Source of the DNA: an uncultured Faecalibacterium sp.
GTDB lineage: Bacteria > Bacillota > Clostridia > Oscillospirales > Acutalibacteraceae
NCBI GenBank assembly: GCA_964411915.1
Contig: CAYPMB010000007.1
Coordinates: 16,531-80,530 of the forward strand
Direction: 5' to 3'
Length of the DNA: 64,000 bases
Positions 35,572 to 61,865 of the stretch are shown here, one piece after another. How positions within the stretch are numbered: the stretch's first letter is position 1; each line of letters starts with the position of its first letter. Both the position numbers and the translations under genes were made by a program. The notes beneath the pieces are model-generated. The model did not search any database and had not been told where the DNA came from. It saw only the letters and a program-made list of their open reading frames with translations.

Positions 35572-35671
35572 GTGGGAACAGACTTCCGGTTAATTAGCTA
35601 TTTATATTCTCACCCTTTTATGCTATAAGGCATATCTTATAAGGAAGACCGAAAGGTTGAATTTTTAAGGG

Positions 35672-36157: not shown

Positions 36158-36271
36158 ATGTTCCAATATGAGAAAAAATTGCAGTTCCCGGTAAATATCA
36201 AAAATCCCAATCCACAGTACGCTAAGATTATCATCACCCAATACGGCGGTCCTTACTGCACAAAGATATAA
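36158..36271 (+). pseudogene. cotJC: 5' fragment of cotJC (Mn-catalase-like spore coat protein) truncated by prophage insertion
   Basis: MFQYEKKLQFPVNIKNPNPQYAKIIITQYGGP matches the conserved CotJC N-terminus. It then diverges (YCTKI) and stops; full-length CotJC is about 190 aa. Confidence 0.75.
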
Positions 36272-36274
36272 TTT

Positions 36275-37729
36275 TTATCTTAAGTGGAAAAAGATAAGGA
36301 ATTTATGGGTGCTTTTTTCAAAAACAATGTGCGAAACTATGTTTCTCAACATTTCATTTTTGGACTTGTCGCTGTGCTTGGGATCTCTTATATATTCTAA
36401 GACGGTTTCGATTTTTTTGGCAAATTCTTTTTTGTTAAATTGTAATTTGGGTTTCGTGTTTTCAAGTTCAGCTTGCAATTTCTGAATGTTAGCGTTGATT
36501 TCACTTTTGCGTTCTTTGTATTCTTCTAATGAATCAATTCCTAATTCATAAGCATCTCGAATTTTAATTAAACGCTTTTTCTCGTTGTCGATCATCTTCT
36601 TTATAACAGCGCTTTCATCGACTGTGTCACTTGTGGGCGATGCAACAACTTGAAAATCTAAGGTTACCGCTGCTGTTTCAAGTGCTTGCATAACCGTTTC
36701 GTTCGCTTTGCGAATTGATATGTTGTGAGATACATGACACTGACCCTTTGCGTAATTATGGCATTGCACAGAAGGTTCTTTTGTGCTTGCCATAACTAAT
36801 GTTGCACCGCAATTGCTACATCTAAGCAGTCCTCTTAACATCCACTCTCTTTTTGACTCCTGGCGTTGATAAGGCCGGTATCTTGCCTTTTGTTCATCTA
36901 ATCTTGTTTGAACTTTTTCAAAAAGCTCTGCCGGTATTATCGGTTCATGAGTGCCGTCAACAAGTATTACGCTTTCACAATGGGTCCGATATCTGACTTT
37001 GTTGGCTTCTTTGCCATCGGGATTCCAACGCATTTTACCCATATAAACAGGATTACGCAATATGTACTCCACGAAACGATTATCCGGAATGTTTCCTCTT
37101 TTGGTTTTTACCCCCATTTTGCCAAGATTGGTTGCAATGGTTCTAAACCCTTGTCCTCGATTGTATTCATTAAAAATATAACGGATGATCTCAGCCTGCT
37201 CCGGTTCAATGACATACCCCTTATCTTCGTTAATATATCCGAATGGGGCAGGGCAGAGCGGCTGGCCTTTTTCTGCTTTGAGTTTCATCGAACGCTTTAC
37301 TTCCGTTGAAAGATTGATTGAATAGTATTCGTCCATCGCTTCAAACATGGCTTCGAGTATAACAGATGTGCCTTTATCGTCACCAATGTTTTCTGAAATG
37401 GATATGACTTCAATGCCACATTGGTTTCTAAGTAAATTTTTATAGACAACCGCATCGGTTCTGTTACGCGCAAAACGGCTGAACTTCCAAAGCAATACTG
37501 CATCAAAAGGCTTGGGCTTTCTCTTCGCTTCAGTTATCATCTTGTTGAATCCGGGGCGCTTTGAAGCATTGCGTCCCGATATTCCTTCATCTTTATAAAT
37601 ATACTCATCGGGAATGTAAAAATCATGTTGCAAAGCGTATTTGCGTATTTCGGTAAGCTGGCTGTCCGGAGACAGATCTACTTGATCATCGGTTGAAACG
37701 CGTATATAACATGCTGCAATTTTTTTCAA
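36275..37729 (-). CDS. large serine recombinase (phage integrase)
   Basis: 484 aa with an N-terminal resolvase domain (AACYIRVSTDDQ), a recombinase domain, a zinc-ribbon CxxC and a C-terminal coiled coil. Confidence 0.9.
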   Translation of the reverse strand: MKKIAACYIRVSTDDQVDLSPDSQLTEIRKYALQHDFYIPDEYIYKDEGISGRNASKRPGFNKMITEAKRKPKPFDAVLLWKFSRFARNRTDAVVYKNLLRNQCGIEVISISENIGDDKGTSVILEAMFEAMDEYYSINLSTEVKRSMKLKAEKGQPLCPAPFGYINEDKGYVIEPEQAEIIRYIFNEYNRGQGFRTIATNLGKMGVKTKRGNIPDNRFVEYILRNPVYMGKMRWNPDGKEANKVRYRTHCESVILVDGTHEPIIPAELFEKVQTRLDEQKARYRPYQRQESKREWMLRGLLRCSNCGATLVMASTKEPSVQCHNYAKGQCHVSHNISIRKANETVMQALETAAVTLDFQVVASPTSDTVDESAVIKKMIDNEKKRLIKIRDAYELGIDSLEEYKERKSEINANIQKLQAELENTKPKLQFNKKEFAKKIETVLEYIRDPKHSDKSKNEMLRNIVSHIVFEKSTHKFLIFFHLR

Positions 37730-37907
37730 ATCGGCACCTCCTTAAATCCCAATTATAACGCATGGTACAAATATATTTAGCTGCTTTTTGTGAGCATTAT
37801 TCACATTAACGGCTTGTTTTTTTGAAATTCTCATTTTTAAGTCAAATTTTGCTCCCCTAAAAGGGGAGCTGTTTTTTATTTTATGTACAAGCGAACCGGT
37901 ACCAATC

Positions 37908-38321
37908 TCACCTTGACAGCTTGCCGGCAAGATCTTTGAAAAGGTAAAGGAAACATTCCTTGATTTTGCCGAAGATCTCATCTGCTGTCGCTTCGTCATA
38001 AATGTGAGAAGTCAGATTACGAGAATAGAGAAGATCAAGCCAGGCTTCTTCATTGTCAATGAGGTTGCTTGTGTATGCTTGGCGCATTACAGATTTAGGG
38101 CTGTTAAGGTCGATATATCCCTCATCAGTCAAATATTCACGGGCCGACTTCCACGCAAGTTCGGTGCAGAACTCAAACCTTTGTATTATTCCGTCCCGGC
38201 ACGATGAGAGGCCGCATTCTTCATATTGTAAAATTGCTTCTTCAAGGCGAGTGATAGCATTGTTAAATTTACTCAGCTTTTCATTCAGCTTGCTCATAGA
38301 GGATAACACCGTCTTTCTCAA
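37908..38321 (-). CDS. HEPN-domain protein (HI0074-type nucleotidyltransferase substrate-binding family)
   Basis: DGIIQRFEFCTELAWK and an Rx4H motif (SRNLTSH). It overlaps the MNT gene; the start may be 38297. Confidence 0.8.
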   Translation of the reverse strand: MRKTVLSSMSKLNEKLSKFNNAITRLEEAILQYEECGLSSCRDGIIQRFEFCTELAWKSAREYLTDEGYIDLNSPKSVMRQAYTSNLIDNEEAWLDLLYSRNLTSHIYDEATADEIFGKIKECFLYLFKDLAGKLSR

Positions 38322-38565
38322 TATTTTTTATAAGTACAGGTTCGGTTTTGCTGTCAACAAAAACAATATCGAACTTCAAAAGTGTATTAAGTTCATCAAC
38401 GCTATATGCAAAATTCACCCTTTTATTTTTATCTAAGCCATATATGGCAATGTCAATGTCGCTTCTTTCTCGGTTATCACCTCTGGCACGAGAGCCGAAA
38501 AGCACAATCTTTTCGATTGAATATTCTTCACCAAGACGAGCAAGTGAGTTATATATTTTTGTCAT
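38281..38565 (-). CDS. minimal nucleotidyltransferase (MNT) antitoxin-like protein
   Basis: 94 aa with LFGSRARGDNRERSDIDIAI (GS...DxD). Confidence 0.8.
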   Translation of the reverse strand: MTKIYNSLARLGEEYSIEKIVLFGSRARGDNRERSDIDIAIYGLDKNKRVNFAYSVDELNTLLKFDIVFVDSKTEPVLIKNIEKDGVILYEQAE

Positions 38566-40259: not shown

Positions 40260-40931
40260 TTAAAACTTAGCCCTAAGTTCAACTACTTTCCCAATCACTT
40301 GCACCGGTAATGAATCGACTTCTTCCGGTGTGAAAAAGAAAGGATCGTATTTCGGATTGGTAGAAATAAGTTTAATACCGTTATCGGTTTTATAGAACTT
40401 TTTAACCGTAGCATCGTTACCGTTGATAAGAACCACCGCAAGTTCTCCGTCATCAACACTTGTCTGCTGTCGAACGATGACAATATCCCCCTCGCTGATT
40501 TTCGGTTCCATACTGTCACCTTTAATTGATAAAGCGAAAAATTCACCTTGACTCGCCATTGCAGAGGAAATTTCTTCCCAATCAAGTATGTTTTCAACAG
40601 CGCTTATAGGCACTCCGGCACGAACATAACCGAGAACTGGTATCTTGATACCTTTGGTGGGAGAATCGGGTTCGTATTTTGAAGAGGGAACATTATAACC
40701 CATAAGCCAAACTTCATTAACATTTAAAGCTAATCCTAATATTGATAATTTATCTTGTCCCGGTTTAACTTTTCCAGAAATATACTGGCTTAAATCATTT
40801 TTTGCTAATTTTACACCATATTTTTCGCAATATGGCTTACAGGCTTCCAAAATATCAATTTGCTTTAAGCCTCTTTCTTTCATTATCTGTTTGAGCCTTT
40901 GTGCAGTTGTCGCTTCTTTCAAAATGTCCAC
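40260..40931 (-). CDS. CI/LexA-like phage repressor (XRE HTH + S24 peptidase)
   Basis: An N-terminal HTH and a C-terminal S24 domain with GDSMEP and an ...K motif; 223 aa. Confidence 0.85.
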   Translation of the reverse strand: MDILKEATTAQRLKQIMKERGLKQIDILEACKPYCEKYGVKLAKNDLSQYISGKVKPGQDKLSILGLALNVNEVWLMGYNVPSSKYEPDSPTKGIKIPVLGYVRAGVPISAVENILDWEEISSAMASQGEFFALSIKGDSMEPKISEGDIVIVRQQTSVDDGELAVVLINGNDATVKKFYKTDNGIKLISTNPKYDPFFFTPEEVDSLPVQVIGKVVELRAKF

Positions 40932-40952: not shown

Positions 40953-41073
40953 ATAATATACTAAATTGAAGAAAAGTTCAAGAGTATAGTGAATTTTTGT
41001 TCAATCTTTTTGAAATAACTGTTGACAAAGTTGAAAATTCACTGTAAAATAAAAATGTTCAAGAGAGTTGAAC
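40953..41073. promoter_or_regulatory. divergent lysogeny/lytic switch region with TTCAA/TTGAA operator palindromes
   Basis: Operator candidates: TTGAA-N6-TTCAA (40966-40981), TTCAA-N5-TTGAA (41000-41014) and GTTCAA-N5-TTGAAC (41057-41073). The rightward promoter is TTGACA 41022-41027 / TAAAAT 41045-41050. The leftward candidate is TTGAAC / TATTAT on the minus strand. Confidence 0.5.
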
Positions 41074-42244: not shown

Positions 42245-42571
42245 ATGAAAAAGAATATAACCAAAATCGGAATAGGCATAGCGTTTTTCGCAACGATTGT
42301 TTTGTATATCGGCTCTTTCGGATCCTATGAACAAGAGATAATTGACGGTAAGCAACTGTTTTGGCAGCTGGCCCTTGCCGTTACATTAACAATAGCTTTA
42401 ATAATGGTGGAGATGTATCGGGAACTTCACGAAGATTATATAGAATTATCTGATGAAGTGACTTGCATGACCGATTGCAATTGCCATTTTTTGGCAGATG
42501 ATGCAGAAGAGGCTTATATACCTTATGAAGAGTTCAGTTTCACTGAAATGCCGGAAGAGGAGGCGGTTTGA
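42245..42571 (+). CDS. hypothetical two-TM membrane protein
   Basis: ORF with an AGGAGA RBS and two hydrophobic helices. Confidence 0.5.
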   Translation: MKKNITKIGIGIAFFATIVLYIGSFGSYEQEIIDGKQLFWQLALAVTLTIALIMVEMYRELHEDYIELSDEVTCMTDCNCHFLADDAEEAYIPYEEFSFTEMPEEEAV

Positions 42572-42572
42572 T

Positions 42573-42884
42573 ATGTTTGAAATAGTGAGAAGAAGTTGTA
42601 AAGTCCTTCCCAAGGTGAAAATATCCGATGAGTTTAAACAGAGTAACCCCCTACCGCAAAAGCTCATCAAGAAAACGGCAAGTTTCATTGCCGGGGAGAA
42701 ACTTTCTCCAATTTATATCGACCGTGATTATAACTTAATTGACGGATATTGCACATATCTGATCGCAACCACTCTCGGAATAAACAAGGTGAAAATATTG
42801 CAAATTCGTGAAAAGAGAATTGCTGAAGAATTTTGCAGAGGGGAGTGTGACTTCGTTGACAGAACTCATGCAAAATGCCGTTAA
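42573..42884 (+). CDS. hypothetical protein, weak ParB-N/Srx-like resemblance
   Basis: The ATG at 42573 lies 1 nt after the previous stop and follows GAGGAGG. The LIDGYCTYLIA segment recalls the ParB DGxHR region but lacks HR. Confidence 0.45.
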   Translation: MFEIVRRSCKVLPKVKISDEFKQSNPLPQKLIKKTASFIAGEKLSPIYIDRDYNLIDGYCTYLIATTLGINKVKILQIREKRIAEEFCRGECDFVDRTHAKCR

Positions 42885-43191
42885 CCATATCGACAAACAA
42901 AGTGAAGGGCAAGACGAGGCTCTTAAGTTGATCGGTCAATACATAATCGAGGAACTCATCAAGAATGATATTGTGGCTGAGAAGATATTAAAAGCCGATT
43001 TGAAATTAGATAAGTGCTATGGAAAAATCAAAGAAAACGCACGAAAAAAGGCGGTAAACGGCTGTGCGTGTGTGAGTCATACCACGGTGTATGCTTGGGT
43101 TCGTGAATACTATGGAATAGAAAAAGAGGATCTTAATGAGATGAAGTCATCTTCAAATATCCTTGATTTTAATGTGTTTGCAGATTTGTGA
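42808..43191 (+). CDS. PcfK-like protein (start uncertain)
   Basis: The C-terminal KCYGKIKENARKKAVNGCACVSHTTVYAWVREYYG resembles the PcfK family as I remember it. It sits directly upstream of a PcfJ-like gene. Confidence 0.4.
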   Translation: MKRELLKNFAEGSVTSLTELMQNAVNHIDKQSEGQDEALKLIGQYIIEELIKNDIVAEKILKADLKLDKCYGKIKENARKKAVNGCACVSHTTVYAWVREYYGIEKEDLNEMKSSSNILDFNVFADL

Positions 43192-43199
43192 GGTGCAAT

Positions 43200-44906
43200 A
43201 TGGCAGCGAAAAATGCAAAAGCAACTGACGATCAAATAATGAATAAACTCTTTAAATCGCTTCCACCAATACCAAAAAAGTTTAAAAAGCAAATATGCCA
43301 AAGAGAACTTATAAACACTGCATATCTTTTTACTTTCCGTTCAAGTGGAGAGCGTAAAGGCTACTGCACCGAGTGCAAAAAGATTGTATCTCTTGAAAAG
43401 AAGAGAACGGAAACTATGGAAGATTTTGAAAATAGAAATCATCGGCATAATGAACGAGGGTATTGCCCGGAATGTAAATCTAAAGTGACATTCAAAGACT
43501 CCGGTAGGGGGAAAAATAAGCTTTGGGATTACGGCAAAGTGATAATAATGCAAAAGGCCGGCAACATGCTTGTTGCCAGATATTTTGATGTCACGAGAAG
43601 TTATCGGCATTTCAGCCTTGATCATATTGATGATAACCATGATGTTGGAGAACTTCAGTTCCATGAGGAACACAGAATTTTCCTTGATGCAAAAAATCGG
43701 AAAGTATATCAGTTTGATCAAAATTGGTATTTTTACGGAAATAGCAATACCGCTAAGTATTATGGCTATGAAGTAGGAGATGCGGAGTTATCGAGAATAT
43801 GGCATAAGAGAAAATCAGCATTCAAAACTGTTTATTCTGAATATGAAACATCGACGCTTTACGGATTAACGGATAAGCTGTTGAAGAATACCGGATTTGA
43901 ATATTGTCCGATCACAATTTATGACTCAAACAAACTTCACAAAAATTATGTTGCCTTCTTGATTAAATATGCCATGTATCCCCAAGCTGTTGAATATATG
44001 ATGAAGTGTGGGTTTCCCGAACTCTTCGCAAATTTATTAAGTCATAACCGAGTGAGTCTAATTAATGTAAGAGCAAAAACGCCTGAAAAACTCTTAAAAT
44101 TGTCAAAACAGGATATAACAATGCTGAGACAGGGAAAATATGGTGATAAAAGCAGTTCTGAAATACTTGGATATTTGCAAAAACTTTCAAAACATAACCT
44201 AAGTTGTGAGGAGAAAGAATACTTTATTCGGAATGTTGCTCAGTACCGATATGACCGAAGCTGGTCAAAAATTTTGAAATATACAACATTCCGCAAGGCA
44301 GAAAATTACACTAAAAAGCATGCTAAAGGTGCTTTGTTGCCTTTAGAGGAATATAGCGATTATATCGTGGCATGCGAAACACTTGGTTGGAATCTTTGCG
44401 AGCATAGAATTTTGTTTCCTCGTGATCTCTTTGAAGCTCACGACAGAGCAAATGCCATTCTTAAAGCTGAAGAAGGGAGACTTCGAGCCGAAGCCCGGGA
44501 AAATTCACGAAAAAAGCGCATATTAGAAGAAAAAAGTATTGATGAAAAAATCCAAAAAAGGTTTTCTTATCTTTCGGAAATGTGGGAGTTCCATTCAAGC
44601 GGATATTTTATAAGGCCTGCCAAAAACCTTGAAGAAATAATATTAGAGGGAGATTATCAAAACATTTGTGTTGGCAAGTCGTTTTATGGATATACTGAAC
44701 GCCACGCAAACGGCACAGCTTATATTTTCTTCGTCAGAAAGGAATCTGAACCCGATACTCCGTTTTACACAGTTGAGATAACAGCAAGCGGAACGGTTGT
44801 GCAGTGCAGAGGATATAGCAACAGACCGCCCACATCAGATGTGTCTGAATTTATGAATAAGTTTAAATCATATATAGAAAACAAGTCTCTTAAAATGACA
44901 GCCTAA
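43200..44906 (+). CDS. PcfJ-like protein with N-terminal zinc-ribbon pairs
   Basis: CTECKK...CPECKS near the N-terminus. The C-terminal FYTVEITASGTVVQCRGYSNRPP pattern resembles the PcfJ family from memory. The ATG at 43200 follows GAGGTG. Confidence 0.5.
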   Translation: MAAKNAKATDDQIMNKLFKSLPPIPKKFKKQICQRELINTAYLFTFRSSGERKGYCTECKKIVSLEKKRTETMEDFENRNHRHNERGYCPECKSKVTFKDSGRGKNKLWDYGKVIIMQKAGNMLVARYFDVTRSYRHFSLDHIDDNHDVGELQFHEEHRIFLDAKNRKVYQFDQNWYFYGNSNTAKYYGYEVGDAELSRIWHKRKSAFKTVYSEYETSTLYGLTDKLLKNTGFEYCPITIYDSNKLHKNYVAFLIKYAMYPQAVEYMMKCGFPELFANLLSHNRVSLINVRAKTPEKLLKLSKQDITMLRQGKYGDKSSSEILGYLQKLSKHNLSCEEKEYFIRNVAQYRYDRSWSKILKYTTFRKAENYTKKHAKGALLPLEEYSDYIVACETLGWNLCEHRILFPRDLFEAHDRANAILKAEEGRLRAEARENSRKKRILEEKSIDEKIQKRFSYLSEMWEFHSSGYFIRPAKNLEEIILEGDYQNICVGKSFYGYTERHANGTAYIFFVRKESEPDTPFYTVEITASGTVVQCRGYSNRPPTSDVSEFMNKFKSYIENKSLKMTA

Positions 44907-44918
44907 GGAGGATAAATA

Positions 44919-45926
44919 ATGAGTGATATTATTTCAGCGCCGGACTTGAAAATGACAAGAACAGATGAAGCAAAAGTTTTGCATTTTGAAATTCTCAAGA
45001 ATGGTGAAGATGCGGCAAAAGCAATGGTTAGTTTTGCCAAAAACTTGAAAACAATGCGTGATAAAAAACTTTATGCAGAACTTGGATATGAGAGCTTTGA
45101 GGGGTATACGGTTAAGGCTGTGGGATTGAAAAAAAGTCAAGCTTATGATTATATATCGGCTCTTGAGCGTTTGGGTGAAAATGAACTTGAGTCAACAGCT
45201 TCAATCGGTATCGGAATAACGAAAATAAAGCTGTTATCGGCATTTAATCCCATGGAAAGAGCAGAGTTTATTGAAAATAATGATGTGGTCGAAATGTCCG
45301 CGAGAGAACTTAAAGAAAAGATTTCCCAACTTACCAAACAAGGGGAACAACTTTCCTTTGATCTTGAAACCGAAAGAGACAAAGTTAACAGCAATGAGGC
45401 TGAAATTGAACGACTTGAGAAAGAAAAGTCTGAATTAAAGAAAAAACTCCATGAGCTTGAAAATCGACCTCATGACGTCGCTGTGCGTGAACTTACCGAT
45501 GAGGAAAAGGATGAAATTATAAAGTCAGCTGTTCAAAAAGAAAGTGAGCATCTCAACGAAAAGATTAAGAAACTTACCCTTGAAATGCAAAATGATAAAA
45601 GCCGCCACAAGGCTGAGAGCGACAGACTTAAAGCTGAAAATAAAAAGGCAGCAGAAAACGCAGTTGAGGAATATAAAAAGCAAAATGCTGAATTAGTGTC
45701 CGAAATCGAGGAGATAAAGAGGCGTTCACAGCAACTTGAAACCCAAATCAAGGCAAATTCATCACCGGAAATAACTCGTTTTAGTTTTTTATTTGAAGAA
45801 ATGAGAGAAACCACAGTCAAACTTTTGGAGGCTTTGGAGATGATTTCCGATGAAACAGTAAAAGCAAAACTGAAAGCAAACTTATTAACATACGCAGATG
45901 CAGTAAAAACTTCTGTCATTCAATAA
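44919..45926 (+). CDS. coiled-coil protein with N-terminal DNA-binding-like domain
   Basis: AAGGAGG RBS, 335 aa, with a long KE-rich coiled coil. Confidence 0.5.
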   Translation: MSDIISAPDLKMTRTDEAKVLHFEILKNGEDAAKAMVSFAKNLKTMRDKKLYAELGYESFEGYTVKAVGLKKSQAYDYISALERLGENELESTASIGIGITKIKLLSAFNPMERAEFIENNDVVEMSARELKEKISQLTKQGEQLSFDLETERDKVNSNEAEIERLEKEKSELKKKLHELENRPHDVAVRELTDEEKDEIIKSAVQKESEHLNEKIKKLTLEMQNDKSRHKAESDRLKAENKKAAENAVEEYKKQNAELVSEIEEIKRRSQQLETQIKANSSPEITRFSFLFEEMRETTVKLLEALEMISDETVKAKLKANLLTYADAVKTSVIQ

Positions 45927-46146
45927 AAAAATAGCCGGCAGGGTTCAACTGCCGGCTATGAAAAAAGGTGAAAACACCCTTTAAAACCACAAAAATATTA
46001 TACACTGTTTTTGCCTTTTTGTCAATTTAATAATTTGTTTATTCGCCTCGTTTTATGAGGCTTAAAGGCTGGATATAGGTATTAACTAAGTGAAAAACTA
46101 ACTGAGAAAAAGCCAATAAGCAAAACGGAAAAATGAAAAGAAAGGT

Positions 46147-46887
46147 GTGAAAGAAACGGTGCCTTATGTGAAGCAAACAATATATGCCGGAAAGACGGTG
46201 GAAGTGCATAAGTATTTTTCTTCAAGATATGGTGTAAGAACTTCTCCCAATAGGCAACCGCATCAGCAACCGACTCCGGAAGAAGTTGCAGAGGTAAACA
46301 AGCAACAGGCAATCAAGAAACTTCGAGGACTTCTCAATGCTAATTTTCAGGGCGGTGACATTCATGCTGTGTTTACATATAAGAGAGAAAACAGACCTGC
46401 AAGTGCTGAGGAAGCTAAGAAAATTCTTAAAAAGCTGATGCGTGAATTGAAGAAGCAATATAAACAAGCCGAAATAGAGTTCAAATATATATGCGTAACT
46501 GAGTATGAGAATGCAGCTATTCACCACCACATAGTTTTGAAAAAAATTGATGTGGACATGCTTAGGAAGTCTTGGGCAATGGGCAAAGTGATGATTACAG
46601 TTCTTGATGACACAGGACAATATGGCAAGCTTGCAGAATATCTGATCAAGGAAACCGATAAGACAGCCCAAAAAGGCGGACTTTATCGCAAACGCTGGAA
46701 TGCAAGTCAAAACTTAATAAAACCTGTAATTGTCAGAGAGGTAATCGAAGCTAAAAAGTGGAGGAATGAGCCAAAAATTCCGAAGGGTTACTATCTTTGG
46801 AAAGATGATAAGAAAGATATAAATTCAGTGGACAGCTATTCACAGCTTCCAAAACAAGATTATATTTTAGTGAGGTTGAATATATGA
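46147..46887 (+). CDS. HUH-superfamily rolling-circle replication initiator-like protein
   Basis: Motif I HAVFTYK, motif II AIHHHIVL, motif III AEYLIKE. GTG start. Confidence 0.6.
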   Translation: MKETVPYVKQTIYAGKTVEVHKYFSSRYGVRTSPNRQPHQQPTPEEVAEVNKQQAIKKLRGLLNANFQGGDIHAVFTYKRENRPASAEEAKKILKKLMRELKKQYKQAEIEFKYICVTEYENAAIHHHIVLKKIDVDMLRKSWAMGKVMITVLDDTGQYGKLAEYLIKETDKTAQKGGLYRKRWNASQNLIKPVIVREVIEAKKWRNEPKIPKGYYLWKDDKKDINSVDSYSQLPKQDYILVRLNI

Positions 46888-47564
46888 AAAAATACATTTT
46901 TGAAAACAATGACATTACTTTTTGGTATGCAGAGGACGGTTTATACCATGTGACAACTCAAGACAGTGACGAAGTTTTCCACCATTTTTCACAAGCTGTT
47001 GCTGAATATTATACCCTTGTGATGAACTCCGTTTTAGCTGTGGGGTACAAAGACAGTTTCTTCTTGGAGGAAAGCCATAACATTAAAGCCGATCTTCTTC
47101 ATATGCCTACTTTGGAGATGAAAAAATATGAAAAAGATTTTTCTGAAATCAAAAAGCAAGCATACAAAAAAGGGGAATTGCCTCCAATGTTTAATAAGTA
47201 TTATGAAATCAATGCATTTAACTCAATGCAACTTGAATATAAACTTTATGCAGAGGGCTTGCATACCAAAGAAGATGCAGAGAAAAACACAAAGATTTTT
47301 TTCAATGCTTATGTGAACGACAGAAAAATGGCGGAGAGCGTTAAAAACGAATATTTACTTCAGCAAGAGAGAATAAAAGCTGCAGAGGAAAAACTTACGC
47401 AAATAGTTAAAACATCTAATGAATTGACTTCTCAGCTGACGAAAGAGGACTTTTACGGCCTTTTGGACACTCTTCTTGATGTGGTGTCAGCCTTGACAGG
47501 GGAAAAAGTAACGGCAAATATAATAAAGATGAACATATTTAAAGCAGAGGGAAAAGGAGCGTAA
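46884..47564 (+). CDS. hypothetical phage protein
   Basis: Translationally coupled (ATGA overlap) to the Rep-like gene. Confidence 0.5.
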   Translation: MKKYIFENNDITFWYAEDGLYHVTTQDSDEVFHHFSQAVAEYYTLVMNSVLAVGYKDSFFLEESHNIKADLLHMPTLEMKKYEKDFSEIKKQAYKKGELPPMFNKYYEINAFNSMQLEYKLYAEGLHTKEDAEKNTKIFFNAYVNDRKMAESVKNEYLLQQERIKAAEEKLTQIVKTSNELTSQLTKEDFYGLLDTLLDVVSALTGEKVTANIIKMNIFKAEGKGA

Positions 47565-47568
47565 AAAG

Positions 47569-47823
47569 ATGAAGTTTCCAAGACCGAGATTAGATCCGGA
47601 AGAATTTGTGTTTAAGATCAGAGAAATGAATGTGCATAAGTATCAGATAACGAGAATTGAAATATACCCCGAAGAGACAATTTATACAGCCGTGGACATT
47701 CTTGAACCGTGCACTATCCGTTTTTATGAAAATGAAATAGGAGAATATGTTTTTCTTACTCAGAGAGAAGCTGAAAAACTAAATGAAAAGATGAAAGAGT
47801 GGGATAAATATGCTGAAAAATAA
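47569..47823 (+). CDS. hypothetical phage protein
   Basis: ORF with a GGAGCG RBS in a tightly packed array. Confidence 0.45.
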   Translation: MKFPRPRLDPEEFVFKIREMNVHKYQITRIEIYPEETIYTAVDILEPCTIRFYENEIGEYVFLTQREAEKLNEKMKEWDKYAEK

Positions 47824-48187
47824 ACTTACAGAGAGCGAAGAACAGAAACTCTTAATTGAGTGGGCAGAATATCAAAAATGCAAGTATCCGGGTTTGGAAT
47901 TGCTGTTTCATATACCTAACGAGGGGAAGAGAAGTTATGCCACCGGTGGAAAAATGAAGTCGGAAGGCTTGAAAAAAGGTGTGCCGGATCTGTTTCTTCC
48001 CGTTGCCAAAAATGGTTACCACGGTATGTTTATTGAAATGAAGAGAGAAAAGGGCGGAAAAACTTCAACGGAACAATTGTATTGGCTAAAACAGTTGAAT
48101 ATGCAAGGATATTATGCTGTTGTTTGCAGAGGATTTGAAGAGGCAAAAGCAGAAATTACGGCATACATAACAGGAGGAAAGAAATGA
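47810..48187 (+). CDS. VRR-NUC domain nuclease
   Basis: GVPDLFL ... FIEMKREKGGKTSTEQLYWL pattern (PD-(D/E)xK core). Confidence 0.75.
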   Translation: MLKNKLTESEEQKLLIEWAEYQKCKYPGLELLFHIPNEGKRSYATGGKMKSEGLKKGVPDLFLPVAKNGYHGMFIEMKREKGGKTSTEQLYWLKQLNMQGYYAVVCRGFEEAKAEITAYITGGKK

Positions 48188-48621
48188 TAAATTGTATAAC
48201 GCTGATGGGAAGGCTAACAGCTGATCCGATATTAAAGGTCACAACAGCCGGAAGAAATGTTACTTCTTTTACTATTGCTGTGGAAAGATCTTTTGCAAAG
48301 CAAGGCGAAGAAAGAGTAACAGATTTCATTAACATTGTTGCTTGGCAGCAAAAAGCGGATTTTATTTGCAGATATTTCAAAAAAGGTTCGATGATAGCTT
48401 TAACAGGTTCTCTCCAAAGCCGTTCTTACGAAGATAAAACCGGAACAAAGAGGACTGCATTTGAAGTGGTTGCCAATGAAATCAGCTTTTGTGTTGGGAA
48501 AAACACTCAAAATGTTGCAGAGGAAAGTGACAGATATCCAACCACAGGGTATTACAAATCCCCCGATATGAGTGATGATTATTTCGACGAGGTTTCTCAA
48601 GATGAGGATTTGCCATTTTAA
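48184..48621 (+). CDS. ssb: single-stranded DNA-binding protein
   Basis: OB-fold N-terminus (NCITLMGRLTADP) and an acidic C-terminal tip DEDLPF. Confidence 0.85.
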   Translation: MINCITLMGRLTADPILKVTTAGRNVTSFTIAVERSFAKQGEERVTDFINIVAWQQKADFICRYFKKGSMIALTGSLQSRSYEDKTGTKRTAFEVVANEISFCVGKNTQNVAEESDRYPTTGYYKSPDMSDDYFDEVSQDEDLPF

Positions 48622-48750
48622 AAAAGCACTTGAAGGAAGTAAAGGACAAGCCCACATCAAAGTTGGTGTTACCGTGAAAAATTAGCTAATGGATAAATAA
48701 CATTCCGGGCAAACGGATAAAATAATTTGAAAAGTAATAAAGGTGAGAAT

Positions 48751-49158
48751 ATGACAACAAAAGAATACTTAAATCAGGCATTTAGACTTAATGAGTTTAT
48801 TAAGAGTCATCTGAAAGAACTTGAACAGCTTAATTGTATTGCGACTTCGGTCACTTTTGATCTTGACGAATATATTTCATCAGGCAGCGTCAAAGACAAG
48901 GTCGGTGAAACGGTTACAAAGATAGTGGCGTTGCAGGATAAAATAAATGAAGAAATAGATAGATTGATTGATCTGAAAAATGAAATACATACCGTTATTG
49001 AGCAGGTTGAAGACGAAGATGAAAGATTGCTCCTCAGAATGAGGTATATTGAATATATGCGTTGGGAGGATATAGCATCACAAATGCATTTTTCACTCAG
49101 AAATGCAACAAGGCTGCATGCTGCGGCACTTGAACATGTGAAAATCCCACAAGTTTAA
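48751..49158 (+). CDS. sigma-70 region-4-like late transcription regulator (DUF1492/ArpU-like)
   Basis: C-terminal LLLRMRYIEYMRWEDIASQMHFSLRNATRLHAAAL is HTH-like. It is the last gene before terS. The ATG at 48751 follows AAGGTGAG. Confidence 0.5.
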   Translation: MTTKEYLNQAFRLNEFIKSHLKELEQLNCIATSVTFDLDEYISSGSVKDKVGETVTKIVALQDKINEEIDRLIDLKNEIHTVIEQVEDEDERLLLRMRYIEYMRWEDIASQMHFSLRNATRLHAAALEHVKIPQV

Positions 49159-49190: not shown

Positions 49191-49381
49191 TTACTTATTT
49201 GATATCATTAAACTGTCAAAAATACAAAAACAGATATCCGTTGTTGATTTTTTTTATAAGAAATACCTCCTAAACAAAACACCGCCTTGTTAAATTTCAG
49301 GGTGGTGTTTTGGGCATATAGGGTTCGACTCCCGACAGCTTAGAAAATATGCAGAGGGATACAGGACAGAGAGGTGGTGAA

Positions 49382-49852
49382 ATGCCGAAAGAAACCCAAA
49401 ATAAGAAATCGAAGAAACTTAACGAACGGCAAGAAAGGTTTTGCCGAGAATATATAATCGATTATAACGCAACTCAGGCAGCGATACGCTCCGGGTATAG
49501 TAAGAGGTCTGCAAAATCTGTTGGAAGTGAAAACCTAACAAAACCCGACATTCTCACGCGCGTGCGTGAGTTACAGGCAGAACAGAGAGAAAGACTGTGC
49601 ATAACCGCTGATTGGGTTGTAATGAGTTTAGTAGATGTTTATGAAAAGTGTATGCAGTTAAAACCGGTTATGGTTTGGAATCCGGAAACAAAGCAAAAAG
49701 AAGAAAGCGGAGAATATGTATTTGATTCAAAAGGAGCGTTGAACGCTTTGGAAATGATCGGTAAGCATCTGGCAGTATTCGATCCTAAAAACACTTCACA
49801 AAACGAAAAGAAGAATATATCGGAACTTCTTTCTGCATTAAAAGAGAAATAA
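49382..49852 (+). CDS. terminase small subunit
   Basis: ERQERFCREYIIDYNATQAAIRSGYS is the typical Terminase_2 N-terminus. Confidence 0.8.
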   Translation: MPKETQNKKSKKLNERQERFCREYIIDYNATQAAIRSGYSKRSAKSVGSENLTKPDILTRVRELQAEQRERLCITADWVVMSLVDVYEKCMQLKPVMVWNPETKQKEESGEYVFDSKGALNALEMIGKHLAVFDPKNTSQNEKKNISELLSALKEK

Positions 49853-49869
49853 ATTAAGAGAAGAGAAAA

Positions 49870-51111
49870 ATGACATTTTCAAAACTATCAGAAAAACAAA
49901 AGTTGCTTTTGAAATGGTGTCATCAAGACACTGAATATAATTCAATAATTTGTGACGGCGCAGTCAGAAGCGGAAAGACATCTGCAATGACTGTGTCGTT
50001 TATTCTGTGGGCCATGCTTTGTTTTAATAATTCCGATTTTGCCATTTGCGGTAAAACAGTTCGATCCTGTGAAAGAAATATTGTTATTCCTTTGCAATCA
50101 AGTGATGACTTGAAGGCTTATTATGACTTATCTTACACACGCTCATCAAATGTTTTAACGGTTGCAGGTCAAGGCAAAATTAACCGCTTTTATATTTTCG
50201 GTGGCAGAGATGAAAGCTCCTATACCCTTATTCAAGGCATAACATTGTCCGGAGTTCTTTGTGATGAAGTGGCGCTCATGCCACGCTCATTTGTGGAGCA
50301 GGCAATAGCAAGAACTTTGTCTGTCAGCGGAAGTAAACTGTGGTTCAACTGCAATCCGGAAGGGCCTCAGCATTGGTTTTATAAAGAGTGGATAAAGCAA
50401 GCCGAAAAGAAAAAGGCTCTGCATTTACACTTCTTGATGAAAGACAATCCCACCATGGACGAAGAAAAAATAAAAAATGCGGAAAGTCAGTTTCAAGGAG
50501 TGTTTTATGATCGCTATGTAAAGGGATTGTGGGTGCAAGCCGAAGGACTTATTTATCCGGAGCAAGCCCACGGAAGTAATATTGTGACGACTTGCGAAAG
50601 AAAATATGACACTTACTATGTATCATGTGACTATGGCACTATGAACCCATTTTCAATGGGACTCTGGGGTCATTGTGACGGAGTTTGGTATCGGGTAAAA
50701 GAATACTACTATTCCGGAAGGAACGGATTTCCAAAGACCGACAGCGAATATATTGACGACTATGCGAAATTTACAGAGGGATTAAGAATTAAAGCAATTG
50801 TTGTTGACCCCTCCGCTGCTTCTTTTATAGCGCTGTTGCGAAGGAACGGTAAGAATGTTATTCCGGCTTCCAACAGCGTTGTTGACGGAATAAGAGTGAC
50901 AGCCAAGCTGCTGAAAGATAAAAAATTAATGATAAACGATTGCTGCACTTCCATAATTGAAGAATTTGGAGAATACCGATGGGACGACAAAAGTGCAGAG
51001 GATAGACCGATAAAAGAACATGATCATGCTATGGACGATATGCGTTATTTCGCAAATACAGTCCTTGCAAGACCTACCGCAAAAATAGCCAAAAAGCCGA
51101 AAGGCTTGTAA
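49870..51111 (+). CDS. terminase large subunit
   Basis: Walker A GAVRSGKT, Walker B VLCDE and a C-terminal nuclease domain with DHAMD. Confidence 0.85.
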   Translation: MTFSKLSEKQKLLLKWCHQDTEYNSIICDGAVRSGKTSAMTVSFILWAMLCFNNSDFAICGKTVRSCERNIVIPLQSSDDLKAYYDLSYTRSSNVLTVAGQGKINRFYIFGGRDESSYTLIQGITLSGVLCDEVALMPRSFVEQAIARTLSVSGSKLWFNCNPEGPQHWFYKEWIKQAEKKKALHLHFLMKDNPTMDEEKIKNAESQFQGVFYDRYVKGLWVQAEGLIYPEQAHGSNIVTTCERKYDTYYVSCDYGTMNPFSMGLWGHCDGVWYRVKEYYYSGRNGFPKTDSEYIDDYAKFTEGLRIKAIVVDPSAASFIALLRRNGKNVIPASNSVVDGIRVTAKLLKDKKLMINDCCTSIIEEFGEYRWDDKSAEDRPIKEHDHAMDDMRYFANTVLARPTAKIAKKPKGL

Positions 51112-51166
51112 ATATACAGGACACTGTGGGTGAAATAAATGCAGTGGACGGAAAGGAAACTAAAAC

Positions 51167-51727
51167 ATGGAAGAGAATGAACAGTTAGAACAGCAGGAGA
51201 ACTCTGTGGGTGAAAATAATGCAGAGGGCAATTCTGTGAAAACAGATGCACAGCGATTAGATGAAATTCTTAATGCAGACGGGAAGTTGCAAGGGGAATT
51301 TGACCGTAGGGTGCAAAAGGCTCTTGAGACAGCAAGAGGAAAATGGCAATCAAGTTTAGAAGAAGAGCAGGATGAGGCAAAAAAGCTGGAAAAAATGACT
51401 CAAAATCAGCGTGACAAGTATTTACTTGAGAAAGAAAAAAATGAGTTTGAGGCTGAAAAGAAAGCATTTAAAGCCCAACAGATGAAACTTGCTACCGGCA
51501 GTGAACTTGCCAAAAGAGGCTTCGATCCTGATTTTGCCGACTTCTTAACAGCCGACACAGCCGAAAAGACAAATGTAAACATTGAAAATTTTGAAAAGGC
51601 TTTTAATATTGCTGTGCAAAAGTACACAAACGAAAAGATGAGAGGCGATAGGCCTCCGAAAGAAAATGAAAATTCTGACAAAAACAGTAATGATGCCTTT
51701 TTAAAGGGCTTCACAGCTAAAATTTAA
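51167..51727 (+). CDS. head scaffolding protein (DUF4355-like)
   Basis: Acidic coiled-coil 186 aa directly upstream of the capsid gene. Confidence 0.6.
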   Translation: MEENEQLEQQENSVGENNAEGNSVKTDAQRLDEILNADGKLQGEFDRRVQKALETARGKWQSSLEEEQDEAKKLEKMTQNQRDKYLLEKEKNEFEAEKKAFKAQQMKLATGSELAKRGFDPDFADFLTADTAEKTNVNIENFEKAFNIAVQKYTNEKMRGDRPPKENENSDKNSNDAFLKGFTAKI

Positions 51728-51748
51728 AAGGAAGGAAATTTATTATTT

Positions 51749-52570
51749 ATGGCAATCAATTATGCAGCAAAATATTCGTCTAAAGTGGACGAAAGAATAG
51801 TTTTAGGTGCATTAACAAATGACATCGTAAACAACGAATATGAATTTATAGGAAATGAAACGGTTAAGGTCTTTTCAATCCCCACAGTGCCGTTAAATGA
51901 TTATGTTCTTACCGGTGCAAGTCGTTACGGCACTCCGAAGGAACTCGAAAATCAAGTTCAGGAATTAACAATGAGAATGGATCGTTCTTTCACTTTCACA
52001 ATTGACAGAAAGAGCCGTGATGATACTGAAATGGCAATGGAAGCCGGCAAAGCACTTCAGCGTGAAATCGATGAAGTAATAATTCCGGAACTTGACGCAT
52101 ATCGCTTGACTCAGATCGGTGAGAATAGCGGTATTGAACTTAATCAGACAGTAACAAAAGAAAATGCTTATGAAACTTTCTTGTCTGTTCAGGAGTTATT
52201 GGACGATGCAGAAGCACCCACAGAGGGTAGAGTTGTAATGTGTTCAAACAGCTTCTTTAAAAAGATTAAACTTGATGAAGCATTCACCAAAATGGGCGAT
52301 ATAGCAACACAGATCTCACTTAAGGGTCAGGTCGGTGAAATTGACGGTGTGCCGGTAATCAAAGTCCCAAAGACACGACTTCCGGAAAACACAGAGTTTA
52401 TTATCACCAATAAGCGTGCTTGCACATCTCCGATTAAACTTGTGGATTATAACATTCATGAGGACCCACCGGGAATCAGCGGTTGGCTTGTTGAAGGCAG
52501 AGTTCGTTATGATGCGTTTGTTCTTAACAGTAAGAAAAAACTTATCGGTATTTGTAAAGCGGCAACATAA
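51749..52570 (+). CDS. major capsid protein
   Basis: 273 aa, assigned by position after the scaffold gene. Highly expressed-type AAGGAAGG RBS. Confidence 0.65.
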   Translation: MAINYAAKYSSKVDERIVLGALTNDIVNNEYEFIGNETVKVFSIPTVPLNDYVLTGASRYGTPKELENQVQELTMRMDRSFTFTIDRKSRDDTEMAMEAGKALQREIDEVIIPELDAYRLTQIGENSGIELNQTVTKENAYETFLSVQELLDDAEAPTEGRVVMCSNSFFKKIKLDEAFTKMGDIATQISLKGQVGEIDGVPVIKVPKTRLPENTEFIITNKRACTSPIKLVDYNIHEDPPGISGWLVEGRVRYDAFVLNSKKKLIGICKAAT

Positions 52571-53089: not shown

Positions 53090-53429
53090 TAATAATTTCA
53101 GAGGCCTAAGAAAACCGGCAGTTGTTTATAAAACAGCTGTTGAAAAGGGTAAGTATGGCAACGAAAGATTGAAAGTCAGTGACTCCGGAACGCAGATAAA
53201 CCTTTTGCTTTTACCTGTAAACGATAAAGCGCTGCTTGAAGAATACGGTGTTAAATATGATGTTTGTTTTCAAACTTCGGTTTTTGACGAAGAATTTGAA
53301 CTCAGGCATTTTTATCTCGTGAAAACAGGAAAAGAATATTATAAGATTATCGGCATCAAAAAGTATCCTAAGCATAGGCATGTAATTATGGAGAAAATAA
53401 AAAATGGCAAAGAATTCTTTCAAAATTGA
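53079..53429 (+). CDS. head-tail adaptor / head closure protein
   Basis: Assigned by position. The TTG at 53079 follows AGGAGGTG. Confidence 0.4.
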   Translation: MLNDNNFRGLRKPAVVYKTAVEKGKYGNERLKVSDSGTQINLLLLPVNDKALLEEYGVKYDVCFQTSVFDEEFELRHFYLVKTGKEYYKIIGIKKYPKHRHVIMEKIKNGKEFFQN

Positions 53430-53907
53430 AAATATGGCTGACGACTTAGTGAGAGGTTTGAAACATAAAGTTAAAAGCCAAAGTGTTATTCTTGCAGGTT
53501 ATTCAAGGGCAAAAGCTCCAACAGACACAAGCGGACTTAAATCGAGTATTGAGGATTTCCAAGAAGAAAAAGAAAACGAAATAATCGGTGGCGCTGTCAC
53601 AACTAATGAGTATGCAGCTTATGTTGAGTTCGGAACCGGACCAACCGGTACTAATGCCGGGCATCCCTTAGACAGTGATTTGGGCATAGTCAGAAAAACA
53701 GATCCTTGGCTTGGTAAAATTCCCATAACAGCTGAAAATGAAAGTAAATTTCACTCACTCAGCGAGAAGGAAAAAGAGCAAGGATTTGCTTATCGTTATG
53801 TCCACGGTCAAGAACCTATTCCGTTTATGTATGAAGCAATGGAGGAGGCAAAAGAAGATATATTAAAAGAGTTTTCATCGGTGTTGAAGGAGGTGCTGCA
53901 TGGTTGA
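53404..53907 (+). CDS. HK97 gp10-family neck protein
   Basis: 167 aa with the YAAYVEFGTG motif typical of the gp10 family. Confidence 0.6.
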   Translation: MAKNSFKIENMADDLVRGLKHKVKSQSVILAGYSRAKAPTDTSGLKSSIEDFQEEKENEIIGGAVTTNEYAAYVEFGTGPTGTNAGHPLDSDLGIVRKTDPWLGKIPITAENESKFHSLSEKEKEQGFAYRYVHGQEPIPFMYEAMEEAKEDILKEFSSVLKEVLHG

Positions 53908-54268
53908 AATAAGAGAACAAATCAAAAATATGCTTATGGAGATTGAGACGAATATTGAATATGAAGTGAAAATGCAATTTCCTCAATCCTTTGCAGAGGG
54001 AAACCTTATAACCTTTTTTGAGCTTACTAATGAAAGTACAAATATACCTTGTGTGGATAAAATAGCATTTCAAATTGATATTTGGACTTACGATATTGAA
54101 ACCATGGTGGAACTGTCTTTAAAAGCTGATGAAGTGATAACACGAGTCGGTTTTCTCAGAAAATATGTCTCACCGGATATAATGCCAACAGCTCCGGGAG
54201 AATATTGCAGAAAGACTTTGCGTTACGGCAGAAAAGTTGACACACGAACAAATAGACTGATAGATTAA
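53900..54268 (+). CDS. tail completion / terminator protein
   Basis: Assigned by position before the major tail gene. Confidence 0.4.
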   Translation: MVEIREQIKNMLMEIETNIEYEVKMQFPQSFAEGNLITFFELTNESTNIPCVDKIAFQIDIWTYDIETMVELSLKADEVITRVGFLRKYVSPDIMPTAPGEYCRKTLRYGRKVDTRTNRLID

Positions 54269-54280
54269 GGAGAAGTAATT

Positions 54281-54691
54281 ATGACAAAAGGACTTGCCTC
54301 AATTGGCATAAAAATCAAAATAAACGATGTGGAATTAGGAAATGCAACAGGAATGGGTGAAATTGGCGGTGATCCTGACGAATTGGACACCACGACATTT
54401 AAAGATGAGGTATCAACCTCGATTCCGGGGGTGCAAAAGCAGAATGCATGGACAGTTGATTACTTATATCAAAATGATGATGAGGAAAGCGATTACAGAA
54501 AGTTAAAGGCTTTTGAAAAAGAAAAAGAGGCAGTGGCGATTGAAGTCGAATTTCCGGATAAAACAACCTTCACCAACAGCGGATATATCACAACAAAAAT
54601 AAACGCTGTAAAAGTAAATGAATTGATATCGGCAACTGCAACTGTTTCATTGCAGAAGAAGTGGACTGTCACAAACCCAAGTGGAACATAA
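54281..54691 (+). CDS. major tail protein
   Basis: Assigned by position upstream of the chaperone pair and tape measure. Strong AAGGAGAAG RBS. Confidence 0.5.
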   Translation: MTKGLASIGIKIKINDVELGNATGMGEIGGDPDELDTTTFKDEVSTSIPGVQKQNAWTVDYLYQNDDEESDYRKLKAFEKEKEAVAIEVEFPDKTTFTNSGYITTKINAVKVNELISATATVSLQKKWTVTNPSGT

Positions 54692-54704
54692 GGAGGAACG
54701 CTGA

Positions 54705-55184
54705 ATGAATACATTATCTTTATCGCTTAAGCATGAAGGACAGTTGAAGGACTTTAATTTGCGATTGAATGTTTTATCTCAGTTAAAGTTAAAAAGAGAA
54801 ACAGGAACCGAAGGAATGGATCTGATATTTAAGGCAATGGACGATCTTGCAACAATGCTTAAGGTGTTTTCAGAGAGTCTTGGTTTCCCGGAAAATGAAA
54901 ATCCGATTACAACCGGAGCGGATTTTTATGAACTTCTTGTTGATAATGGTTATAACGGCAGAGAGGATTTTGCAACACTTCTTTTTAATATTGCCTCACA
55001 TTCAGGCATGGTTAAGGAAGAACAAGCCGAAAAGTTAATACACACCATAACCAAAATGTATAACGATGTTTATTTATCTATCGGAAATATTCAGGACAGC
55101 GAAAAGGAGGCAACCACATCTGAAGATGCGCCTTCCTTTCGATATTCCGAAGAAGAAAACCCTGACAATAGAAGCGTTAATTGA
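54705..55184 (+). CDS. tail assembly chaperone (gpG-like)
   Basis: Acidic 159 aa immediately upstream of the tape measure. Confidence 0.5.
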   Translation: MNTLSLSLKHEGQLKDFNLRLNVLSQLKLKRETGTEGMDLIFKAMDDLATMLKVFSESLGFPENENPITTGADFYELLVDNGYNGREDFATLLFNIASHSGMVKEEQAEKLIHTITKMYNDVYLSIGNIQDSEKEATTSEDAPSFRYSEEENPDNRSVN

Positions 55185-55458
55185 AGAGGCTCTTATTTCA
55201 GGTATGCGCTTAAATGAAATATATTTAAGCACATGGGGTGAGATAATAGCAGTTGTAGATGCTTATACGGAGCGAAAACGAAGAGAATATCAAAACTTGT
55301 CTATAATCGCTGACAAGCAAGCATATTTAACAGCAGTTTATTTGTCCGGTGGAGGGGAGAAGGTTTCAATGTTTGAGATGTTCCCTTATTGGAATGAGGA
55401 AGAAACAGCTGAATTGACAATTGCAAAATATAAGAAAATGCTTATGGAAATGGGGTGA
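55066..55458 (+). CDS. overlapping ORF upstream of the tape measure (gpT-like frameshift extension or separate small gene from ATG 55204)
   Basis: It overlaps the end of 54705-55184 by 119 nt in the +1 frame. Confidence 0.35.
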   Translation: MFIYLSEIFRTAKRRQPHLKMRLPFDIPKKKTLTIEALIEEALISGMRLNEIYLSTWGEIIAVVDAYTERKRREYQNLSIIADKQAYLTAVYLSGGGEKVSMFEMFPYWNEEETAELTIAKYKKMLMEMG

Positions 55459-55462
55459 ACAG

Positions 55463-58231: not shown

Positions 58232-58254
58232 TGCCACCGATTTCTCGGTGGCAT
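58231..58254. terminator. hairpin after the tape measure gene
   Basis: ATGCCACCGA-TTTC-TCGGTGGCAT, with a T-rich tract on the minus-strand side. Confidence 0.5.
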
Positions 58255-58258
58255 TGCT

Positions 58259-58813: not shown

Positions 58814-58825
58814 GGAGCAAAAAAC

Positions 58826-60919: not shown

Positions 60920-60938
60920 ATATAAGGAGTAAACTTAA

Positions 60939-61862: not shown

Positions 61863-61865
61863 GTT

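Follow-up and report, generated by a model that had tools for sequence, protein, structure and literature searches.

A prophage carrying a large serine recombinase in the spore-coat gene cotJC, and its predicted exact excision

The 64,000-nucleotide stretch analysed here (the window; contig CAYPMB010000007.1, positions 16,531 to 80,530) comes from an uncultured gut Clostridia bacterium that is probably Oscillospiraceae- or Acutalibacteraceae-like. It carries a cotJABC spore-coat operon whose third gene, cotJC, is interrupted at codon 31 by a prophage, and the structure of the junction indicates that the prophage used its own large serine recombinase (LSR) to enter the gene at this codon. The reconstruction puts the other 177 cotJC codons outside the window, at the distal end of the element. 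We put the probability of the overall explanation, an LSR prophage in cotJC whose exact excision would rebuild the gene, at roughly 80%.

The cotJC junction and its attachment sites

An earlier reading of the same sequence (the original prediction) had described cotJA and cotJB as intact, the next open reading frame (ORF) as a CotJC N-terminus that diverges after about 32 codons and stops at 36271, and beyond it a convergent 484-residue LSR gene followed by phage DNA to the window end. The features we found agree with this description throughout (Table 1). The ORF listing and Pfam concur on cotJA and cotJB; the Logan gene calls give cotJA a shorter start (57 residues), and the closest cotJB match among GTDB species representatives has 70% identity. 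Codons 1-32 of the truncated cotJC (36158-36253) are native and are followed by five phage-encoded codons and the stop codon, which is separated from the end of the recombinase ORF (36275) by 3 nt. The 32 native residues correspond to the first 32 of the 284 positions in the Pfam profile Mn_catalase (PF05067, E 2e-7) and are the same as those of the intact alleles P0332 and P0327. When an intact CotJC was compared with the whole window by tblastn, only these residues were matched (31/32 identical); the search gave neither the 3' part of cotJC nor a CotJC paralogue in the 64 kb, the intact paralogue that the original prediction had considered included. The uninterrupted cotJABC locus of a related species (L019) is 87.7% identical to the window over 1361 nt, in an alignment that begins at 34907 and ends sharply at 36256. 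The resemblance to cotJC is not due to chance.

The promoter-like site of the operon fits the sigma-K consensus AC-N16-17-CATAnnnTA, and a CATA -10 element is also found upstream of cotJA, at the equivalent position, in L019, L004 and L025. Expression of the cotJ operon in the mother cell is taken from what is known of Bacillus subtilis and Clostridioides difficile. On the other side of the junction, all of the DNA from 36254 to 64000 is phage-like by Pfam and PHROG matches, with an S24 repressor, Rep, SSB, TerS, TerL, scaffold, major capsid, tape measure and tail genes, and the best explanation of this gene content is a temperate siphovirus-like prophage.

The recombinase itself has the Resolvase (PF00239), Recombinase (PF07508) and Zn_ribbon_recom (PF13408) domains above the Pfam cut-offs, carries the catalytic motif YIRVSTDDQ, and matches the PHROG 95 integrase with E 9e-108. 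By these Pfam and PHROG matches, scored without the coiled-coil insert, it is a phage serine integrase, and its att sites agree with this, with a short inverted-repeat attP and a 9-bp core common to attB. Its structural relatives are SprA of SPbeta (PDB 9dxh, E 5e-11) and the A118 integrase (PDB 4kis, E 1e-7).

All four attachment (att) sites were rebuilt with the help of other public assemblies, attP, attB and attR being taken from contigs of these. An exact-protein look-up of the LSR identified two Logan contigs (L002 and L003) that share the cotJB-LSR junction with the window. A third contig, L001, has an LSR that is 100% identical and tracks the window up to ...GTAAGGACCGCC, then continues into other DNA from the core onward; in a fourth, L012, the LSR is 96% identical and attP lies at the equivalent site. 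Beyond the joint there is a DUF4406 gene in L001 and a holin gene in the related L012, and this DNA is the other end of the phage. The element thus occurs in its excised (attP) form in public data. The joint is a 20-4-20 palindrome, TATATCTTTCAGCAGTAAGG-CGGT-CCTTACTGCACAAAGATATA in the cotJC sense, whose 20-nt arms pair at 18/20 positions around CGGT and perfectly in L012. A palindromic joint is the form expected of the attP of an LSR.

The attB site is supplied by L019, where a 137-residue ORF, cotJA, cotJB, an intact cotJC of 209 codons and an amidase gene follow one another. It lies in codons Y29-G30-G31-P32 of the conserved QYGGPDGEL motif. Common to attB, attL and attP is the 9-bp core GGCGGTCCT (36245-36253), and the phage P arm of attL is CCTTACTGCACAAAGATATA (36251-36270). 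The symmetry centre, GG at 36248-36249, is the start of codon G31. LSRs are known to cleave at a 2-nt centre; because they do so and attP is symmetric, strand exchange would have taken place at this central GG.

The relevant CotJC alleles were four members of a 90%-identity cluster of the intact CotJC P0002. Two of them are whole proteins: P0332, with 209 residues, and P0327, a full-length CotJC with an 18-residue upstream extension that is also present in the window (ORF 36104-36271). The other two, P0329 (161 residues) and P0334 (174 residues), are cotJC 3' fragments. L042 runs from a DUF4406 gene through the phage arm and CGGT into the cotJC 3' part and an amidase gene, which by this layout is attR in the polarity of the window. 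On L039 it is the LSR gene that immediately precedes this 3' part (P0329), in the opposite polarity, and the phage portion of this contig is 99.6% identical to L012. The layout predicted for the right prophage end is ...TATATCTTT[CA/GT]GCAGTAAGG-CGGT-CCTGATGGTGAATTAGG....

When the window (36158-36249) was joined in silico to the sequence of L042 after the core, the product was a 209-residue CotJC that matches the natural allele P0332 at every residue, and attL and attR are exact hybrids of attP and attB. On paper, exact excision would therefore restore cotJC without a scar, joining its halves at the central GG. The att sites and the uninterrupted gene of a relative, both of which the original prediction had named as informative, thus fit the junction to the base. 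The 3' part of cotJC that it had placed at the other prophage end was found in other assemblies, which are inferred to come from the same host species, and not beyond this window: the contigs with tail genes stop where the last ORF of the window stops. No exact match to the phage-arm pattern was present in IMG/VR, and the only three in metagenomes of the Joint Genome Institute (JGI) were judged on inspection by eye to be due to chance.

These comparisons also bear on the proposal that the truncated cotJC is only a dead remnant or an artefact of assembly, with no partner fragment and with a junction made by rearrangement or chimerism. Such an origin would agree with the absence of the 3' part from the window. 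We consider it most improbable, since the same junction is present in two independent Logan assemblies (L002 and L003) and since attP, attB and attR all match it base for base.

cotJC as an insertion target

The prophage is not the only element at this codon. A non-phage element of 4,487 bp (the mini-element; L027 1365-5856) splits cotJC of another species at the same codon and in the same orientation, and both cotJC halves are intact on single contigs. It encodes a 479-residue LSR (59% identical to that of the prophage), a small protein discussed below as a candidate directionality factor, two other small ORFs, a sigma-70-family protein and a DUF4367 protein. Complete copies are present in L027, L028, L029 and L036 and partial ones in L030, L032, L033 and L035, found in runs of several accession series and in one NCBI assembly. 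Its exact cotJC 3' fragment occurs in 19 contigs, and among the matches listed the element is present at 8 of 10. In other samples, the identical 3' fragment (P0276) is preceded in L031 (8317-10465) and L034 (5727-7875) by an unrelated LSR of 532 residues (26% identical), in an element that resembles an integrative and conjugative element (ICE) and carries a TraG-family protein, a tyrosine integrase and a 1216-residue surface-like protein. Its junction lies about 6 bp downstream of the site used in the window (site 1).

A scan of IMG/VR with a CotJC alignment yielded 111 viral contigs with CotJC pieces, and the best 80 of these 111 were classified (L045-L124). At 61 of the 80 loci we found cotJC 3' fragments that start at the insertion site of the window. 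In 42 of the 61, the fragment is immediately preceded by a co-directional LSR gene of the same clade as that of the window (37-48% identical to it); in 16, no LSR is present within 6 kb, in agreement with the polarity seen in the window. A scan of IMG/VR with the LSR gave no close relatives, and the distant ones surfaced only through this CotJC scan. The phage arms at these loci have in common a motif, TTATA...CA(A/G)TA-N-GG-N-GG, that mimics the host sequence.

Two further hot spots were seen within the gene (examples are L121 862-1056 with L119 6001-6255, and L105, L111 and L113 at 6001-6330). Hot spot 2, at GTEE|LGHLEM, shows a 12-bp repeat, GGCACAGAGGAA, and an element of about 20.5 kb on one contig; hot spot 3 is at EDMAA|EQKAR. 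Certain cotJC genes are interrupted at two sites simultaneously. All three hot spots, site 1 being QYGG|PDGEL, are located in the most conserved CotJC motifs, which presumably carry the metal ligands of the Mn-catalase.

Orientation varies as well. Near-identical phages (99.6%) occupy cotJC in both orientations in one host species, with the LSR next to the 3' half in L039 (4495-4530) and the DUF4406 gene next to it in L042 (490-530; see also the starts of L040 and L041). The central 4 bp of attP are inverted between variants, reading CGGT in L001 (11440-11500) and ACCG in L012 (1940-2010), and inversion of this spacer within a perfect palindrome may switch the polarity of integration.

Among the elements found in cotJC are phages inserted in either orientation, an ICE-like element and a possibly domesticated element of 4.5 kb that retains an LSR, the candidate directionality factor and a sigma/anti-sigma-like pair. 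One broader reading is that cotJC is a major landing pad in gut spore-formers, with three hot spots, at least three unrelated LSR lineages and frequent programmed rearrangement, and that a perfectly palindromic attP lets a phage change polarity by inverting its 4-bp spacer. We offer this combined reading tentatively, as a possibility with the odds against it. If it holds, programmed rearrangement of a coat gene in the mother cell, sometimes by two excisions, would be common in the gut microbiota.

Possible excision during sporulation and the alternatives

Excision would need a partner for the LSR. Small ORFs upstream of LSRs of this clade were clustered, giving a family of 59-81 residues for which a profile was built. 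The profile picks out a 69-residue ORF in the window (Table 1), the ORF adjoining the LSR in the mini-element, a protein of a phage from woodrat faeces, and copies in 17 IMG/VR loci. The mini-element and the prophage have in common only the LSR and this family: tblastx of the mini-element against the window revealed no common gene, the small protein being found by the profile only, and tblastx of the LSR region of the woodrat phage against the window returned nothing beyond the LSR. On the basis of its co-occurrence with the LSR clade, we regard the 69-residue ORF as the candidate recombination directionality factor (RDF) of this LSR. It belongs to no Pfam family and Foldseek against the PDB gave no match with E <1, so that the RDF foreseen in the original prediction is represented by a co-occurring candidate without a match to a known family or fold. 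The candidate is situated in the early operon behind the strong sigma-70-like promoter at 41022-41050, opposite the S24 repressor. Since this operon is under repressor control, excision should accompany prophage induction.

The woodrat phage (L038; PQ006094.1, bajarodcaudo virus 3) is a complete circular genome of 32 kb with an LSR 43.6% identical to that of the window. Just past the LSR stop (4440-4530) it has an attP-like palindrome, TATATCTTCTAGCAGTAAGT-ACCT-CC..AAAAGATATA, and the RDF homologue adjoins. To judge from these features, it probably targets cotJC as well.

Integration at codon 31 leaves the 32-residue CotJC stub at one end of the element and the remainder of the gene at the far end. 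We propose that excision would require the LSR and a directionality factor, for which the 69-residue ORF is the best candidate. The S24 repressor would keep the early operon off, and excision would occur at least upon the SOS response or prophage induction. It may occur in addition in the terminally differentiated mother cell, as for SPbeta in spsM and phi3T in kamA; cotJC would then be rebuilt when it is needed, and the spore would keep the prophage.

Four lines of evidence favor the link to sporulation. The target is a coat gene, and a mother-cell-type promoter consensus is located upstream of cotJA and is conserved in related hosts. The mini-element occupies the same codon in the same orientation between two intact cotJC halves, and has only the LSR and the candidate RDF in common with the phage. 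The cotJC fragments adjoining such elements are uninterrupted reading frames in dozens of lysogens. Finally, there is published precedent for excision of LSR elements in sporulation (skin, SPbeta, phi3T, vfbin, vrin, gin and yin), and in all published cases compared, LSR elements in mother-cell genes are excised at that stage.

Other observations weigh against the proposal or parts of it. The attR site comes from other assemblies, which are tied to the window through identical protein sequences. Consensus scans for sigma-E/sigma-K promoters, which the original prediction had suggested seeking, were negative ahead of the LSR and candidate RDF genes and in the intergenic DNA of the prophage; the scan of the visible prophage gave one match, inside a tail gene, compared with 3.6 expected by chance. 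The mini-element showed no such consensus either, although a divergent promoter could escape consensus scans, and the consensus used does recognize the cotJ promoters of these hosts. The candidate RDF of the mini-element is preceded by a sigma-A-like TTGACA-17-AATTAT, read by eye. The lysogeny switch is a standard S24 repressor of the SOS type, so the phage would need no trigger for excision other than SOS. Prophages of this family lie in cotJC in both orientations, which makes control through cotJ read-through unlikely. In the window itself, such read-through is predicted to run antisense across the LSR gene and to end at the terminator at 37851, the sole terminator-like site on the plus strand between 36271 and 39429. 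Last, B. subtilis and C. difficile are reported to form spores without catalases of the CotJC type.

For this prophage, excision in the mother cell, argued by analogy, has in our estimate a little less than an even chance. We rate at the same level, just short of evens, ordinary lysogeny with plain gene disruption, in which the element would be excised on induction only and the spores of lysogens would lack CotJC. The conserved stretch coding for QYGGPDGEL would then be a reliable landing site whose loss is neutral for growth, in keeping with literature reports that LSR phages often target conserved coding sequences irrespective of function. The early lytic operon that holds the candidate RDF under the S24 repressor, the lack of a sporulation-type promoter consensus in the element, the reported dispensability of these catalases in model species and the existence of both prophage orientations all agree with plain disruption. 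It accounts less well for the published elements, since those that are excised in sporulation include the active phages SPbeta and phi3T. It also leaves unexplained why, in a 4.5-kb element without phage genes, the LSR and the candidate RDF are kept and both halves of cotJC are intact. The three separate hot spots, the genes split twice and the undegraded state of the fragments suggest that the cotJC coding sequence is still under selection.

Another proposal is that the element is defective and domesticated, in the manner of skin: that it forms no virions and is kept mainly as a developmental switch of cotJC. It turns in part on the portal gene, whose apparent lack had been remarked on in the original prediction and is borne out within the window. 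The nearest characterised relative, phage phi4J1 (50% identity in TerL), has its portal and MuF genes placed after terL and before the scaffold gene; in the window the scaffold gene follows TerL by 55 nt, and tblastn with the phi4J1 proteins detected no portal or MuF homologue in the window, so that the virion module is incomplete there. The same portal-less order recurs in a Logan contig from another sample (L037), and a much reduced relative of 4.5 kb is known. Portal aside, the modules for the head, tail, terminase, replication and lysogeny are nevertheless complete and intact. In one sample the LSR contig runs through attP and not attL, as expected of a replicating or free element, and near-identical copies in several samples suggest recent spread. 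The element may be virion-defective, or the portal gene may sit in the unseen right end. We consider domestication unlikely. The skin/SPbeta-like strategy that had been proposed for this locus thus holds for the structure, an LSR prophage whose removal is predicted to restore the ORF exactly; its mother-cell timing is drawn from precedent.

Among known systems, the closest are SPbeta in spsM (SprA, SprB) and phi3T in kamA, likewise full-size prophages with an LSR inside a gene for the spore envelope that is expressed in the mother cell. In these, exact excision restores the ORF, as predicted here; their RDF, like the candidate in the window, is encoded apart from the integrase, and the phage is also stress-responsive. 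The window differs from SPbeta in that its LSR is only distantly related to SprA, in its target gene and host class (Clostridia rather than Bacilli), and in that sprB has a sigma-E/K promoter whereas none was found at the candidate RDF. Unlike SPbeta and phi3T, the element has no portal gene in the window, and its excision in sporulation is a prediction by analogy. The elements skin in sigK (SpoIVCA/Skr in B. subtilis; CD1231/CD1234 in C. difficile), gin in gerE and yin in yabG also carry LSRs and interrupt sporulation genes of the mother cell. The mini-element is similar in size to gin and skinCd and keeps little beyond a recombinase and a small candidate RDF. In contrast to skin, the window element is a large, nearly complete prophage and not a remnant, and cotJC is a structural and enzymatic coat gene rather than a regulator, so failed excision would not block sporulation. 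The Listeria phages A118 and phi10403S in comK are likewise LSR prophages in a conserved ORF, and the A118 integrase is structurally related. In that case of active lysogeny, reversible excision restores gene function; it differs from the present one in that the trigger is intracellular growth and not sporulation, and there is no division into germline and soma.

Interruption of cotJC has been recorded before. According to bioRxiv 10.1101/2021.11.22.469490, Abe et al. (2013) had already listed the gene among insertion targets, and cotJC of Laceyella sacchari is interrupted by a skin-like element (bioRxiv 10.1101/2022.02.25.481979). As excerpted, these reports are list-level entries on other lineages, and the excerpts contain no att sites, recombinase family, RDF or excision data; a literature search likewise returned no description of any of these for cotJC. 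New here, with regard to the literature searched, are a large LSR clade in gut phages that is dedicated to the cotJC site, the 4.5-kb mini-element, two further hot spots and the polarity variants.

What is known of programmed prophage excision from mother-cell genes comes almost entirely from Bacillus and from a small number of pathogenic clostridia. The present case supplies a fully specified system in uncultured gut Clostridia, with four att sites, an intact integrase and an RDF candidate, and the series from full phage to 4.5-kb remnant at the same codon makes the domestication of prophages into developmental switches testable. Lysogeny may also bear on spore-coat composition, and hence on the oxidative-stress resistance and transmission of gut spore-formers. 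For developers of integrase tools, an LSR clade with a conserved, defined target and natural variants of both polarities may be of interest.

Remaining prophage genes

The coordinates of all features are collected in Table 1. Next to the LSR gene lies a pair of genes (37908..38565) that we take to be a toxin-antitoxin system of the HEPN/MNT type or defence cargo, and beside it a nuclease gene.

Table 1. Features of the cotJ operon and of the prophage, in window coordinates
Feature	Coordinates	Strand	Description
Promoter-like site of the cotJ operon, mother-cell type	35612..35639	+	AC-N17-CATATCTTA; consensus match only
cotJA, intact	35672-35911	+	Pfam CotJA PF11007, E 3e-17
cotJB, intact	35905-36153	+	Pfam CotJB PF12652, E 5e-25
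Truncated cotJC	36158-36271	+	37-residue ORF, MFQYEKKLQFPVNIKNPNPQYAKIIITQYGGPYCTKI and stop
attL	36226..36270		Host half-site, 9-bp core and phage P arm; from comparison of window, attP (L001, L012) and attB (L019)
LSR (integrase), 484 residues	36275-37729	-	TTG start behind AAGGAGG ribosome-binding site
Strong terminator-like hairpin and T-run	37851..37879	+	Just beyond the LSR start
Nucleotidyltransferase-substrate-binding protein	37908-38321	-	Pfam NTase_sub_bind, E 3e-35
Nucleotidyltransferase, overlapping gene	38281-38565	-	Pfam Polbeta, NTP_transf_2
DUF4041/T5orf172 (GIY-YIG-like) nuclease cargo, 560 residues	38562..40244	-	Pfam
LexA/CI-type repressor	40260..40931	-	Peptidase_S24, E 7e-30; HTH_19 weak, below curated cut-off
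Early lytic promoter-like site	41022..41050	+	TTGACA-17-TAAAAT; 11/12 consensus matches
DUF739 protein (PF05339), read as Cro-like	41068-41319	+	Follows the early promoter
Candidate RDF, 69 residues	41710-41919	+	Family profile match, E 4e-11
Replication/early module	42498..49158	+	PcfK/PcfJ-like, ParB-like (Plasmid_parti_N), rolling-circle Rep, VRR-NUC, SSB, DUF1492 regulator
Packaging/head module without portal	49349..52570	+	TerS, TerL 49870-51111, scaffold 51167-51727, major capsid 51749-52570
Neck/tail module	53404..64000	+	Neck, major tail, 936-residue tape measure, tail proteins; runs past the window end

A search of 30000-42000 with Rfam gave a tRNA-Met only. The cargo adjacent to the LSR varies among these phages and looks like defence genes (37908-40244 in the window compared with 3695-7159 in L012); in L012 and L039 it comprises Abi_2, a nucleotidyltransferase pair, a shorter T5orf172 protein and an Mrr-type restriction enzyme. 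The replication module is plasmid-like over 42498-46887, and one sample contains the attP form only; the excised element might persist as an episome.

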